Made by a program: the position numbers and the translations under genes
Notes under the pieces: model-generated
What the model saw: only the letters and a program-made list of their open reading frames with translations
The model's database searches: none
Told to the model about the DNA's origin: nothing
Part shown: positions 83-3,794 of the stretch, one piece after another
How positions within the stretch are numbered: the stretch's first letter is position 1
How the letters are laid out: each line of letters starts with the position of its first letter
Source: a virus
Lineage: Duplodnaviria > Heunggongvirae > Uroviricota > Caudoviricetes
Reading direction: 5' to 3' (one strand)
IMG/VR virus record: IMGVR_UViG_2713896905_000005
Span: 1 to 8,704 of that record
Length of the DNA stretch: 8,704 nt

Positions 83-1096
83 TTAGCCACGGTTAACCTC
101 CTGCGGCGGTTCTGGCAGCGGCATCCAGTGGGTTACTTTCGATGCCGGTTCTTCCCCATTGTCAGTAACTGCCCACCATTTGTTTCTCGAACAATCGTAA
201 TACCCTTCGAAGGTATCGCACTCAGTCCAGCCGTAAGACTTACCCCAACACCAAACATATTGTTTATCGTTCGGCATTCGCTCACTACAGCTTATCCAAC
301 TATCCGGAGTTACCGGAGAGTTGCCAGCCACTCTACGCAAAACAGCCTTAACCGCCTCAATACGGTCATCATCGCAACTTTCCAGCGTATCTATGCGGTC
401 GAGCATGATGATGGCGTTATCAATATCAGGATTGCCAGTCCACTCATTACTGCGATTGGATTCGGCAGCCTGGTTACCAGATGCGGGTTGATTGTCGGCC
501 TTACCCAGTCTGTCGTCGCTGCATGAATGCCCTTCCAGCCAGGCCAATGCTTGTCGCATGAAATACGCAATATGTTTGCCGTGGTAATCGTCTTCATCGA
601 TGTGAAAAGCGATACTACGGATGTATTCAATTGCGTTTTCAATGGCCTCCGGCGTTATCGGCGCTGACATATTTTGATTTTGGTGTGCCAAGAGGCGGCT
701 GGCATCCTCAACACCTTTAACTGCATCTGCGCAGTAGTTATAGCGATTGCATTCCACTAACTTCTGCTTGAGATTTTCAATTGCTTGCGCGACATCAGCC
801 TGTATTACCGGAACAGGTGGAGCGGCGTACAAAGCAATCAAACTGCCAATTGTTCGCTCTTTCGCATCATCCAGACATGGATAGGCTGGGGTAGATACAA
901 TTGCATTATCTCTAAGGTCGTCAGCCATTACCCATGCCACAGGTTCTGCGCCATCAGCTTCTCGCCGCTTCTGTAGCTCTGCTGCCATCGCTCTCACGAC
1001 TTCAACTGGTGCCCTTGCAGCAAACTCCATGTTGGTGATCAGCTCATTAAGATATTGCTCGCTGGGATACTGTTTCTTATTGGTAATGGTGGTCAT
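83..1096 (-). CDS. Hypothetical prophage protein, 337 aa, with a Trp/Cys-rich C-terminal region (…VTHWMPLPEPP) recalled as DUF551-like
   Basis: Long ORF; ATG at 1096 with AAGGAAAG about 6 nt upstream, 1 nt after the upstream stop. C-terminal motif WISCSERMP…VTHWMPLPEPP matches my memory of DUF551 prophage proteins. N-terminus (MTTIT…LYAAPPVPV) resembles that of ORF 1541-1954. Confidence 0.7.
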   Translation of the reverse strand: MTTITNKKQYPSEQYLNELITNMEFAARAPVEVVRAMAAELQKRREADGAEPVAWVMADDLRDNAIVSTPAYPCLDDAKERTIGSLIALYAAPPVPVIQADVAQAIENLKQKLVECNRYNYCADAVKGVEDASRLLAHQNQNMSAPITPEAIENAIEYIRSIAFHIDEDDYHGKHIAYFMRQALAWLEGHSCSDDRLGKADNQPASGNQAAESNRSNEWTGNPDIDNAIIMLDRIDTLESCDDDRIEAVKAVLRRVAGNSPVTPDSWISCSERMPNDKQYVWCWGKSYGWTECDTFEGYYDCSRNKWWAVTDNGEEPASKVTHWMPLPEPPQEVNRG

Positions 1097-1097
1097 A

Positions 1098-1316
1098 TCA
1101 GCTTTCCTTGTACGGGTTAATTTTATTGTGCAGCTTCCTAAATGGACTCCATATCACATCGGTATATAACTCAATAACTGGTTCAACCATTTTTCCAATT
1201 ACCCAGACCAGGATTAACGGGGATATCGGTATCAGCAACACGATAAACAGAATGAGAAACAAGAGTTCTATAGCTCTGCTTCTTCGCGGATATTCCTTTC
1301 TGAACAATGTTGGCAC
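1098..1316 (-). CDS. Small predicted membrane protein, about 72 aa, with GTG start
   Basis: GTG at 1316-1314 lies 6 nt after AAGGAG and directly after the upstream stop. The track's TTG start at 1358 has no RBS and would overlap the upstream gene by 41 nt. Product has one long hydrophobic stretch (AIELLFLILFIVLLIPISPLILVWVIG) flanked by basic residues. Confidence 0.4.
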   Translation of the reverse strand: MPTLFRKEYPRRSRAIELLFLILFIVLLIPISPLILVWVIGKMVEPVIELYTDVIWSPFRKLHNKINPYKES

Positions 1317-1317
1317 A

Positions 1318-1539
1318 TCACTCTCCTTTGCTCGCTGCTTTCGCCTGCTCTTTAGCAAGTCGCTCCGCTTCTCTGAAATTCCAATCCACTCGATGTGCTA
1401 TATCAATTGCAGAACGCACTGTCCGTTCAATTAGCATGTCCAGATTATCAATTGTCATTGCCATATCTGGATTGCGAGATAAAATCTCCGCCCTCTGAAT
1501 CTGCCAGTTGTTGCAGGTTTCAAGTAACGAGTTAGCCAT
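1318..1539 (-). CDS. Hypothetical protein, 73 aa
   Basis: ATG at 1539 with AAGGAAAG about 6 nt upstream, 1 nt after the upstream stop; sits in a co-directional gene chain. Confidence 0.6.
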   Translation of the reverse strand: MANSLLETCNNWQIQRAEILSRNPDMAMTIDNLDMLIERTVRSAIDIAHRVDWNFREAERLAKEQAKAASKGE

Positions 1540-1540
1540 A

Positions 1541-1954
1541 TCACTTTCCTTTTCCCTGAAGCATTGCGGCGCGGCAGGCGTTCCAGCCTCTCACCTCTGC
1601 AATAGCTGCAACAGCATCAACCGCGTACATGCTAAGAGGGTTAGGCATTGGTTTTTCTTCCGGTACTACTGGAACGGGTGGAGTGGCGTAGACCTCAATA
1701 ATTCCATTATCAATAGGCCATTCCCCATCCTTGATGTAGTCACTTGTGCCATCGACCTGCTGTTCTGCAATGTGGAAAGCACCTATTGGTTTTGCTTCCA
1801 GCGATGCCAGCGTAATTTCGGCCAGCTTGAGGTGAATAACCGCTGCATCAGAAGCGCCCGGGACTCTTTCCACCGCAACGCGAAGAACCTCAATATTCTT
1901 CTTAGCCTGCTCAATCAACTGCTCTTTGGTGAACTCTTTGGTAATAGTGGTCAT
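1541..1954 (-). CDS. Hypothetical protein, 137 aa, sharing an N-terminal module with ORF 83-1096
   Basis: ATG at 1954; the upstream stop TGAGG supplies a GAGG SD. N-terminus MTTITKE… and VYATPPVPVVPE parallel MTTITNK… and LYAAPPVPVIQ in the 337-aa protein. Confidence 0.65.
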   Translation of the reverse strand: MTTITKEFTKEQLIEQAKKNIEVLRVAVERVPGASDAAVIHLKLAEITLASLEAKPIGAFHIAEQQVDGTSDYIKDGEWPIDNGIIEVYATPPVPVVPEEKPMPNPLSMYAVDAVAAIAEVRGWNACRAAMLQGKGK

Positions 1955-1964
1955 TTGTTATGCC

Positions 1965-2162
1965 TCAATACACAAAATCTGTTTTAAATTCATGGTTACA
2001 TTCTGGACAGCATGTTTCGTAATCTTTTATTTCTTCACATGCCTGTTTTGCTCCAGAAAATTCCCAGAAATCAGCATCGCAAAGCAGATCGAAATTGTGG
2101 CCGCATTTGGGGCATTCGGTATCAAGTGACAGACTCCAGTAAGCAGGTGTGTTTTTGTCCAT
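1965..2162 (-). CDS. Small Cys-rich, zinc-ribbon-like protein, 65 aa
   Basis: ATG at 2162 lies 1 nt after the upstream TGA with AAGGAGAG upstream. Cys pairs CPKC … CCPEC. The track's longer 92-aa version has no RBS and overlaps the upstream gene. Confidence 0.55.
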   Translation of the reverse strand: MDKNTPAYWSLSLDTECPKCGHNFDLLCDADFWEFSGAKQACEEIKDYETCCPECNHEFKTDFVY

Positions 2163-2163
2163 C

Positions 2164-2811
2164 TCACTCTCCTTTGATGCGAATGCCAGCGGCGCGTGGC
2201 ACATTAACTTCCACGATGCGCACAGTTGGTTTGTACATCTCAATTGCTGTCAGCCAGTCAGCTCCTGTCATGCGCTTTTCCGCATCGCCATTAGTCCACT
2301 GAACCGGTACACCAATAGCCTTCATCGCGATTTCTATTTCCCCGGCAATGGCGCTTTTTCCGCAACCAGTAAAACCAGAAACAACGACAAGAACTTCACC
2401 TTTGGCTGGTTTTATTTCCCGTGCTTCCAGTTCTGCAATACGCTTACTCCCATCCGAGATAACACCTTCGTAATACTCGCGTTGCTCGTTGAGTTTTGAT
2501 TTTGCTTCCTCAAGCTCAACACGCAGCTTCCCTACCGTTAGCGCAATATCCTCGTTCTCCTGGTCGCGGCGTTTGATGTATTGCTGGTTTCTTTCCAGCT
2601 CATCCAGCAGCGCCCGAACTACATCAGCGGTTTTCTGGCACTGGTCAACAATGCTAACGTCACAACCAGTATCGAAACCGTCCTCAGTTTCAAAGCGGAG
2701 CTCTACAGAGTCGCCGTCGATATCAGATGGTTCGAACCCGGCAATGTTTTCCAGAATGCCGATTATGCTTTCTGCGCTATGACGTAATGCGCGTTTATCG
2801 ATGTTGCTCAT
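2164..2811 (-). CDS. Hypothetical protein, 215 aa: acidic N-terminal region, central coiled-coil-like segment, C-terminal region with a Walker-A-like motif (GFTGCGKS). Possibly Ead/Ea22-like by architecture (uncertain)
   Basis: ATG at 2811 overlaps the upstream stop as ATGA. Heptad-like charged segment (LLDELERNQQYIKRR…ELEEAKSKLNEQ). VLVVVSGFTGCGKSA fits hhhhh-GxxxxGKS. The family assignment is from memory only. Confidence 0.7.
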   Translation of the reverse strand: MSNIDKRALRHSAESIIGILENIAGFEPSDIDGDSVELRFETEDGFDTGCDVSIVDQCQKTADVVRALLDELERNQQYIKRRDQENEDIALTVGKLRVELEEAKSKLNEQREYYEGVISDGSKRIAELEAREIKPAKGEVLVVVSGFTGCGKSAIAGEIEIAMKAIGVPVQWTNGDAEKRMTGADWLTAIEMYKPTVRIVEVNVPRAAGIRIKGE

Positions 2812-3326
2812 GACCGCACTCCTTTGCGAAGCTGGGAAGCAAAGTCAACTAACCACTCAGTCATTTCAACCTTCCCTACCAGGTCTGAACCAGGGTGCAT
2901 ACAGCAATCACTCTGCGCCGCTTTGAAATCCTTATACTCATATTCTTGGGCCACCAGATTTTTTGCAGCTTCTATAGCAGCATCCACGCCCTGCGCTCGT
3001 ACTTCAGCCAGGAAAGCATCGGTGGCTGGGGTGTCTGATTGCAGAAACTTTGCGCGATAGTCATTCCACCCTCTTGCATACATGGGATTAACTTGCACTC
3101 CATCTTTTACGCAATATGCCTGCCCTCCACGGTTGATAACCTTGATTTCGTCCATAGCGCCAGACTTCAGCCCCGCATTCTCCGCTGCCAGCGCCGCGCA
3201 CTTGGCCTCAGCTTCAGCAAATTTACGCACCATATATTCAGCATTTGTTTCGTTAACCTTTAAATCACATGAGATGCATTTACCTTTCAGAAATCCATCC
3301 ATCTCAATTAGTGTCATTCGTTTCAT
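2808..3326 (-). CDS. Hypothetical protein, 172 aa
   Basis: ATG at 3326 overlaps the stop of the upstream 54-codon ORF as ATGA, with GGGAAGAA upstream. The track start at 3344 is GTG with no SD. Confidence 0.6.
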
Positions 3327-3487
3327 TTCTTCCCACTCCGCCACATCGCATTCAGATATTTGTTTTGATTCACTGACGGAGAAGAATTTCTCTTAAGCAA
3401 TTCCTCTCTCGATGGCATTGGCTTTACGCGTTGGCGAATAATCATTTCTTCCGGAAGAATGCCGGGATTGTATGCAAGTCCTCTCAT
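3323..3487 (-). CDS. Small hypothetical protein, 54 aa
   Basis: ATG at 3487 is preceded by GAGGAA formed with the stop of the upstream 98-aa ORF (TGAGGAAtttaccATG). Its stop overlaps the next ATG as ATGA. Part of a longer 105-aa track ORF whose 5' part overlaps the better-supported 98-aa gene. Confidence 0.4.
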
Positions 3488-3497
3488 GGTAAATTCC

Positions 3498-3794
3498 TCA
3501 GTCATTACTGATAGCGCCATAGCGTGAGCGGTAATTACGCAGGCGCGGGTCGATATATTCAGGGAAGTGGGTATATGTGGCTTTGCGGAATGGTCGGATT
3601 GATGTCTGGTAAATTCGCTCGCGTTCTTCTTTCTCTGCAAGCCATATACAGTGGCGAAATTCCTTTTCCTCTTTCGTTTCCTGCGGTAGAGACATTATTC
3701 GATCGTAGTTTTTTCTGAATTTATCCAGCACCTCCGATACGGAATTGCCGGAACAGCGGCGCGGGTCATCCGCACCATACAGAGGCGCTGGCAT
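3498..3794 (-). CDS. Hypothetical protein, 98 aa
   Basis: ATG at 3794 with AGGAG 6 nt upstream, immediately after the ssb stop. Confidence 0.6.

Follow-up and report, generated by a model that had tools for sequence, protein, structure and literature searches.

A nine-gene early-left block of an Escherichia albertii prophage as a probable permutation of the P22 ea/lambda exo-xis accessory region

The window analyzed here, 8,704 nucleotides (nt) of tailed-phage DNA (Caudoviricetes; IMG/VR record IMGVR_UViG_2713896905_000005, positions 1 to 8,704), was the whole of contig BBVV01000032.1, and its proteins were named Escherichia albertii in NCBI. Distal to ssb, nt 83-3794 of the minus strand carried nine consecutive genes lying back to back, designated g1 to g9 in the direction of transcription, with the predicted products (lengths in amino acids, aa) and the matches on which they were named as follows:

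3498-3794, minus strand: g1, Abc2 anti-RecBCD protein, 98 aa (Pfam PF11043)
3323-3487, minus strand: g2, small basic protein of the DUF2737 family, 54 aa (Pfam PF10930)
2808-3326, minus strand: g3, EaE/Oad2-family protein, 172 aa (PHROG matches and alignment with Oad2)
2164-2811, minus strand: g4, Ead/Ea22-family protein, 215 aa (Pfam PF13935)
1965-2162, minus strand: g5, small acidic zinc-ribbon-like protein, 65 aa (CPKC...CPEC; phrog_4173)
1541-1954, minus strand: g6, protein with the 'MTTIT...LYAxPPVP' N-terminal module, 137 aa (PHROG matches)
1318-1539, minus strand: g7, protein of unassigned function, 73 aa (phrog_10585)
1098-1316, minus strand: g8, DUF4014 protein with one membrane helix and a GTG start, 72 aa (Pfam PF13198)
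83-1096, minus strand: g9, EaA-like protein with a C-terminal DUF551 domain, 337 aa (Pfam PF04448)

Only 24 of the 3712 bases in this block were non-coding. The junctions g2/g3 and g3/g4 were ATGA overlaps, g4/g5, g6/g7, g7/g8 and g8/g9 were separated by 1 nt, and g1/g2 and g5/g6 by 10 nt, the gap between ssb and g1 being 13 nt; a purine-rich Shine-Dalgarno (SD)-like motif was located 5-10 nt before each of the nine starts. An earlier note on this DNA had described about nine tightly coupled minus-strand genes with SD sequences distal to ssb, and this description was borne out. The same nine genes had been called independently in public records with the same sequence; the start of g3 was placed at the ATG at 3326, versus the GTG at 3344 in the list of open reading frames (ORFs) from the ORF finder. 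No strong terminator-like site was observed on the minus strand within the block, and promoter-like matches numbered 11 versus 13.7 expected, with none on the minus strand within the block. Direct and inverted repeats in the block were short, and apart from the gene ends shared by g4 and g7 (see below) most were no more than expected by chance. A scan of the window against Rfam gave no match, NCBIfam gave only SSB above its cut-offs, and none of the ten proteins compared with the PADLOC-DB v2 defence models matched a family at E-values (E) up to 0.01.

The protein predicted for g1 aligned over residues 1-98 with positions 1-97 of PF11043 (E = 4e-62), matched phrog_656 ('abc2 anti-RecBCD'), shared 93% identity with P22 Abc2, and matched the solved chain 8b1t_A, 'Anti-RecBCD protein 2', over its full length (E = 1.4e-56). 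By similarity, g1 is thus identified as Abc2, the structurally solved anti-RecBCD protein associated with recombination. The Abc2 protein of P22 binds RecC, and PDB entries support a complex with RecBCD; by near-identity to this characterized and solved protein, g1 would be expected to bind RecC and to alter RecBCD as well. Compared with the Abc2-RecBCD complex (PDB 8b1t and 8b1u), no functional difference of g1 was evident, and P22 abc1, the partner gene of abc2, was not present in this phage. The g2 protein matched PF10930 (E = 1e-28), with counterparts in P22 orf56 (72% identity), HK446 gp28 (93% identity) and HK97 gp38. The possibility that DUF2737 corresponds to P22 Abc1 was considered and rejected, since Abc1 is a different 94-aa protein with no match in the window.

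No Pfam match was obtained for g3, which matched phrog_614, phrog_368 and phrog_492 and shared 47% identity with gp27 (Oad2) of phage HK446 over 138 aligned positions (BLASTP, E = 7e-32) and 37% identity with P22 EaE. Two alignments that included Oad2, its HK75 homologue and P22 EaE (A2 and A3) revealed four conserved anchor segments, among them the N-terminal 36 aa and a C-terminal QLRKG, with two variable cassettes between them. The g3 protein possessed the family anchors and is assigned by sequence to the EaE/Oad2 family. The cassettes differed among g3, Oad2, the HK75 protein and P22 EaE, those of g3 being unrelated to those of Oad2, and a 21-residue insertion following the N-terminal anchor of Oad2 was absent from g3. 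Relatives of the EaE family fell into more than 7,800 clusters, all unnamed, and neither the family profile (A3) nor the g3 sequence gave a significant match in the PDB.

Oad2 has recently been reported to bind the P2 OLD tetramer and to block its activation, and is described as related to P22 EaE and at times fused to HNH or EaD/Ea22 proteins; in the same work, Gp33 of HK75 and HK446 triggers OLD, HK75 Gp33 being sufficient for P2 OLD, and the authors regard the region as a modular hotspot for anti-defence (preprint 10.64898/2026.07.10.737580, July 2026). The g3 gene occupied the same position as oad2, directly after the DUF2737 gene and downstream of Gp33-Erf-...-Abc2. The operon thus encodes, besides an Oad2-family protein, a homologue of the reported OLD trigger (Gp33, see below) and Abc2 as a predicted modifier of RecBCD, and this makes it plausible that g3 serves in anti-defence.

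The protein predicted for g4 matched PF13935 (Ead_Ea22) over residues 2-129 (E = 2e-26) and consisted of an N-terminal domain, a coiled coil (approximately residues 63-130) and, towards the C-terminus, a domain of about 75 aa (approximately residues 134-208). The coiled coil and the last eight residues, 'AGIRIKGE', were nearly identical to those of lambda Ea22, whereas the N-terminal and C-terminal domains differed; between the coiled coil and the 'AGIRIKGE' tail the two proteins had no similarity, so that the lambda-type C-terminal domain was not encountered in g4. Identity with P22 EaD reached 77% in the coiled coil. A single-sequence AlphaFold model showed a long helix at residues 54-130, with a predicted local distance difference test score (pLDDT) of up to 95, and a C-terminal domain with values below 50. 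Ea22 has been described for lambda and P27 as a mosaic, pro-lysogenic protein whose coiled coil is tetrameric and whose C-terminal domain varies, that of lambda being a mixed alpha/beta dimer solved by nuclear magnetic resonance (PMC10834534). From its sequence, g4 is accordingly classed as an Ea22 C-terminal-domain variant of a kind allowed within the family.

The C-terminal domain of g4 carried a Walker A motif, G146-F-T-G-C-G-K152-S153 (GFTGCGKS, residues 146-153), preceded by a hydrophobic strand-like segment. In an alignment of 33 sequences down to 49% identity (A1), the G, T, G, G, K and S of the motif were invariant, and so was V197-x-I199-V-E201, which resembles a Walker B motif although the model assigned no strand there. 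Profile matches below threshold involved the Walker A motifs of UvrA, ArsA, sugar and adenosine 5'-phosphosulfate kinases and a designed 'phosphate-loop protein'; a sequence search of the PDB with g4 gave nothing significant, and a model of the domain built with an alignment had a pLDDT of 77. Judging from these motifs, the domain may be of the P-loop type. Its relatives comprised 447 clusters at 50% identity, in which it occupied either end of proteins 110-623 aa in length, including high-GC proteins of Burkholderia or Ralstonia type as judged by composition and phage hits; a Pfam scan of ten long members identified no partner domain. In phages the domain was rare, occurring in 21 of 50,697 records and in no Shiga toxin (Stx) phage, which is indirect evidence that it is not among the three published Stx variants.

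The remaining genes encoded members of less well defined families. The four cysteines of g5 (positions 17, 20, 52 and 55) form a CxxC...CxxC pattern; the protein matched phrog_4173 (E = 9e-27), with zinc-motif matches in Pfam and NCBIfam below threshold only. No Pfam match was found for g6, which was related to phrog_5117, phrog_660 and phrog_60, families to which PHROG assigns no function, and shared 28% identity with the N-terminus of g9 (E = 5e-5), the N-terminal module 'MTTIT...LYAxPPVP' being common to g6, g9 and P22 EaA. A motif of the 'LYAxPPVP' type closed the shared module at about residues 86-95 of g6 (nt 1670-1700, approximately), at about residues 88-97 of g9 (nt 805-835, approximately) and in P22 EaA, while 'LYAAPPAQAVD' or 'LHAAPPSQAVD' stood at module junctions of distant high-GC proteins with the Walker-A domain (P0207, P0211 and P0236); the motif may be a conserved linker or a recombination joint. 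The g7 protein matched phrog_10585 (E = 2e-41), for which PHROG assigns no function, and its 90% cluster contained 106 members from Escherichia and Salmonella, all 'hypothetical'. The g8 protein, translated from the GTG at 1316, 5-6 nt past a GGAGAG, matched PF13198 (E = 8.5e-25) and contained a hydrophobic stretch, LFLILFIVLLIPISPLILV (Kyte-Doolittle mean of 3.1), as its single predicted helix. Residues 266-332 of g9 aligned with positions 1-68 of the 68 in PF04448 (E = 1.4e-17), and g9 shared 33% identity with the C-terminus of P22 EaA; the PDB gave no significant match, and a scan of genome contigs with g9 recovered two loci only and was uninformative.

With these assignments, the Ead/Ea22 and DUF551 family guesses of the earlier note were confirmed by the matches to PF13935 (g4) and PF04448 (g9), and the DUF551, membrane and zinc-ribbon proteins that it had listed were recognized in g9, g8 and g5. 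Its 'Ead/Ea22' and 'P-loop' proteins proved to be one gene product, that of g4, and its statement that no recombination function was recognizable failed for g1. Membership in well-characterized families with mundane functions, which the note had named, if it held for all ORFs, as an argument against its proposal, was found for g1 only, the other eight belonging to named families whose functions are poorly known or unassigned.

The closest known arrangement was the ea region of P22 (abc2, orf56, eaE, eaF, eaD, eaI, eaA ... xis, int), which has the same place, strand and gene order; tblastn of the window proteins against it showed the synteny abc2-orf56-eaE-eaD-...-eaA, with EaE, EaD and EaA being recognizable partial homologues of g3, g4 and g9. 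The two regions differed in that P22 abc1, eaF, eaI, eaG and eaC had no homologue here, g5-g8 were absent from P22, ssb was located between erf and abc2 in the window, and the middle or C-terminal domains of g4 and g9 differed from those of EaD and EaA. The same positions were filled in HK75, HK446, E. coli prophages and phage vB_EcoP-720R6. The exo-xis region of lambda and Stx phages is likewise made up of early-left accessory genes that lie between those for recombination and xis. Lambda Ea22 and g4 followed the same mosaic logic, in which the N-terminal half is shared and the C-terminal domain varies, that of g4 being neither the alpha/beta domain of lambda nor DUF551; exo-xis orf60a, orf61, orf63 and ea8.5 had no homologue here. 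Thus, the proposal that these genes form the distal, variable accessory part of an early-left operon agreed with the synteny to P22 ea and lambda exo-xis, and for the same reason the locus is not of an unrecognized kind, being syntenic with the former and the counterpart of the latter, which has been studied.

To see which genes travel together, 80 viral loci around g4 homologues were fetched and scored with all nine proteins; the denominators were 89 loci for abc2 and DUF2737 and, for the genes beyond the g4 homologue, the 81 loci whose sequence extended far enough past it. Only abc2 (24/89) and DUF2737 (29/89) were consistently linked. Downstream of the g4 homologue, g5 was present in 12 of 81 loci (directly after it), g7 in 10 and g8 in 13, while about 30 loci had g6-like segments and 60 had a DUF551 gene within 3.5 kb, with varied gene orders and a wide range of identities. 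Domains were exchanged as well: ORFs were found that combined the Ea22 N-terminus and coiled coil with DUF551, or the C-terminal part of g6 with the middle region of g9, and in 11 ORFs the C-terminal part of g6 was fused to DUF551. The N-terminal half of phrog_368 matched g4 and its C-terminal half matched g3, indicating that fused forms of these two exist. In metagenome contigs, an identical g4-g9 set was preceded by another g3, of 66% identity, and by a recombination module of RecT/Gp157 in place of Erf/SSB/Abc2, and the set was 100% identical in six independent contigs. None of 50,697 phage records and none of 5,426 complete E. coli genomes covered at least 80% of nt 1-3900 of the window, while pieces of this stretch occurred in 4,751 of the 5,426 genomes.

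The plasmid prophage D6 (NC_050154.1), which is P1-like, carried at nt 3250-4749 a Walker-A Ea22 gene, g5-like and g7-like genes, a DUF4014 gene and a 360-aa gene in the order of the window; the 360-aa product, annotated as similar to P1 pmgU, matched the middle region of g9. Part of the lambdoid accessory set has thus passed into a P1-type genome.

Since neighbours differed among the approximately 80 loci and domains swapped between genes, the uncharacterized module proposed in the earlier note was not recovered. Each gene was intact in related prophages, as the note's proposal had called for, though not all together, and the comparison across prophages that it had advised yielded only abc2 and DUF2737 as consistent companions. 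There is no conserved nine-gene module and no new nine-gene system; what is conserved is a positional scheme and not a gene set, consisting of recombination genes, abc2, DUF2737, an EaE-like gene, an Ea22-like gene, small variable genes and a DUF551 gene.

The gene ends offered a possible site for such exchange. Both g4 and g7 ended in '...KGE*' through AAAGGAGAGTGA (nt 2164-2181 and 1318-1335, respectively), which doubles as the SD sequence of the next gene. The same C-terminal 'KGE' was found in lambda Ea22 and P22 EaD, and a 'boundary sequence' has been annotated in the related phage CUS-3. Gene ends may be exchange points, the AAAGGAGAGTGA end having the appearance of a conserved gene-boundary cassette.

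The block was located between the recombination genes and the ASCH/excisionase end, and forms the part of the early-left operon farthest from the promoter in a lambdoid, P22-like prophage. The recombination genes upstream were:

3808-4314, minus strand: ssb (Pfam SSB)
4315-5022, minus strand: Erf/Rad52-like annealing protein (Pfam Rad52_Rad22)
5110-5280, minus strand: Gp33 homologue, 56 aa (100% identical to HK75 Gp33)

A second 56-aa ORF at nt 5031-5201 of the minus strand (phrog_1723, E = 4.5e-34) overlapped 5110-5280 out of frame by 92 nt, and the two are either genuine overlapping genes or an annotation error that recurs. It was also considered as the Gp33 homologue and was rejected for lack of similarity, the true homologue being the overlapping ORF 5110-5280.

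The upstream part of the window further encoded a C2 repressor of P22/21 type, Cro, an N-like antiterminator, a Nun-like factor, Ral and a cIII-like gene. The N-like gene, also part of the early-left operon, was located at nt 6902-7237 of the minus strand (phrog_271, E = 9e-31) and was followed with a 4-nt overlap by that of the Nun-like termination factor (nt 6561-6905, minus strand; phrog_5632, E = 5e-71); Nun of HK022 is an exclusion factor against lambda. Terminator-like hairpins on the minus strand lay at nt 5480-5537, 6147-6168 and 6545-6562, between the N-like and recombination genes. The presence of these hairpins upstream, with none comparable in the nine-gene block, fits antitermination-dependent expression of the distal genes.

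At the other end, a coupled minus-strand gene beginning at the GTG at nt 90 overlapped the stop of g9 (GTGGCTAA) and left the window at its edge (nt 1-90); the gene at this position in related loci was annotated as a 94-aa ASCH-domain protein. The chromosome CP030778.2 possessed the same nine genes with 99-100% identity, followed by an ASCH-like gene, genes of 55 and 66 aa and then host genes, and the Pfam families of the host genes next to this end of the prophage fit the dsdC-dsdX-dsdA locus. Related loci ran on beyond the block to torI or xis/int.

Taken together, we consider it likely, with a probability of about 0.75, that the block is the permutation carried by an E. albertii prophage of the known P22 ea/lambda exo-xis accessory region, in which function and inheritance would reside in the single gene or domain and not in the block of nine. 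The block would be read through from PL under the antiterminator encoded upstream, early in infection or induction, and its genes would be translated by coupling. Abc2 would bind RecC and redirect RecBCD for Erf/SSB-dependent recombination. As tampering with RecBCD can trip guard-type defences, among them OLD and certain retrons, the genes next to abc2 may be individually selected binders of host proteins. Among them, g3 would most likely act like Oad2, binding a host immunity protein directly, and as its cassettes differ from those of Oad2, its target may differ too. The g4 protein would be a coiled-coil oligomer presenting an exchangeable C-terminal 'warhead', the Walker-A domain probably binding nucleotide or phosphate, and g5-g9 would be further independent accessory proteins, including a small membrane protein and a DUF551 protein. 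Of the earlier suggestion that the block is a candidate for anti-defence or host takeover, the part concerning g1 (Abc2), and possibly g3 through the Oad2 family, stands, while for the block at large no PADLOC match was obtained.

Several points weigh against this reading. The loci were picked by similarity to g4, so that they give only an indirect sample of how the other genes are linked, and some local linkage exists, as phages of the phiV10 type and the P1-like D6 share, in the same order, a sub-block of Walker-A Ea22, g5-like, g7-like, DUF4014 and g9-like genes. Only g1 has a characterized, near-identical homologue, and the Walker-A domain of g4 is without an assignable fold. Oad2 shares 54% identity with its HK75 homologue, which fails to inhibit OLD (10.64898/2026.07.10.737580); g3, at 47% identity, is no closer to Oad2 than this inactive protein, and anti-OLD activity is thus not to be assumed for it. 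The published phenotypes of Ea22 and exo-xis concern the lysis-lysogeny decision, not defence (PMC10834534, PMC7093339 and PMC3824215).

The last of these points leads to a possible, less probable alternative, namely that the block mainly tunes the lysis-lysogeny decision and host physiology, as the exo-xis genes of lambda and Stx phages do, rather than serving counter-defence. Ea22 has been reported to favour lysogeny and exo-xis to alter lysogenization and induction (PMC7093339, PMC3824215 and PMC10834534), the coiled coil of g4 matches that of lambda Ea22 almost residue for residue, and the DUF551 protein YfdS belongs to a gene set affecting replication initiation when overexpressed (PMC4776307). 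Apart from the OLD preprint, our literature search found no paper tying Ea22 to anti-defence. Against a mainly lysis-lysogeny role, no homologue was present here of orf60a, orf61, orf63 and ea8.5, the exo-xis genes that have been characterized besides ea22. The lysis-lysogeny and anti-defence roles are compatible and not mutually exclusive.

It is doubtful, though conceivable, that the Ea-type proteins (g3, EaE/Oad2-like; g4, Ea22-like; g6 and g9, EaA-like) constitute a combinatorial library of host-immunity inhibitors, with swappable 'warhead' cassettes, each directed at a defence protein of its own, on conserved anchor or coiled-coil scaffolds. Jointly with this, g3 would hit an OLD-family or other RecBCD-guarding system missed by Oad2, and the domain of g4 would be a new warhead that would soak up a nucleotide signal or mimic the Walker-A face of an ABC-type ATPase sensor (OLD, Gabija, PARIS or Lamassu), thereby blocking dimerization. 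Still more unlikely is a superinfection-exclusion or defence function of part of the block, for example g8 or g5, that would protect the lysogen. Prophage accessory regions often hold genes of the exclusion type, and g8, as a small single-pass membrane protein, has a form common among exclusion proteins. Genes deep in a repressor-controlled PL operon with no convincing internal promoter (see the promoter-like matches above) should, however, be silent in a lysogen, and PADLOC gave no hit. Least probable of all is a single co-functional, co-inherited anti-defence or host-takeover system, with coupling ensuring stoichiometric multi-subunit assembly, for although the extreme packing with overlapping stop and start codons, the identical g4-g9 sets and the partial set of D6 in the same order might suggest it, g5 to g8 each accompany g4 in a minority of loci and in changing order, no phage record or E. 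coli genome among those searched covers 80% or more of nt 1-3900, the stretch that includes the block, domains move between genes, tight coupling is general in the operon (e.g., erf/ssb), and identical copies reflect recent spread and are silent on constraint.

As one more permutation of a long-known mosaic region, every protein of which belongs to a named, though for the most part poorly understood, family, the locus in itself adds little; what is new here is the g3 cassettes, the permutation and the family members, the kind of region being already known. Two testable leads emerge, the Oad2-like g3 and the Walker-A domain of g4. An EaE/Oad2-family gene with new cassettes directly downstream of Abc2 and of a protein 100% identical to HK75 Gp33, the reported trigger of OLD, is a test case for the evolution of inhibitor specificity, and the highly conserved, portable domain of about 75 residues is found both on Ea22 scaffolds in enterobacterial phages and in unrelated proteins of Burkholderia/Ralstonia phages. 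If g3 or the Walker-A domain were an immunity inhibitor, this would support the view of the ea/exo-xis region as a mine of counter-defence proteins.

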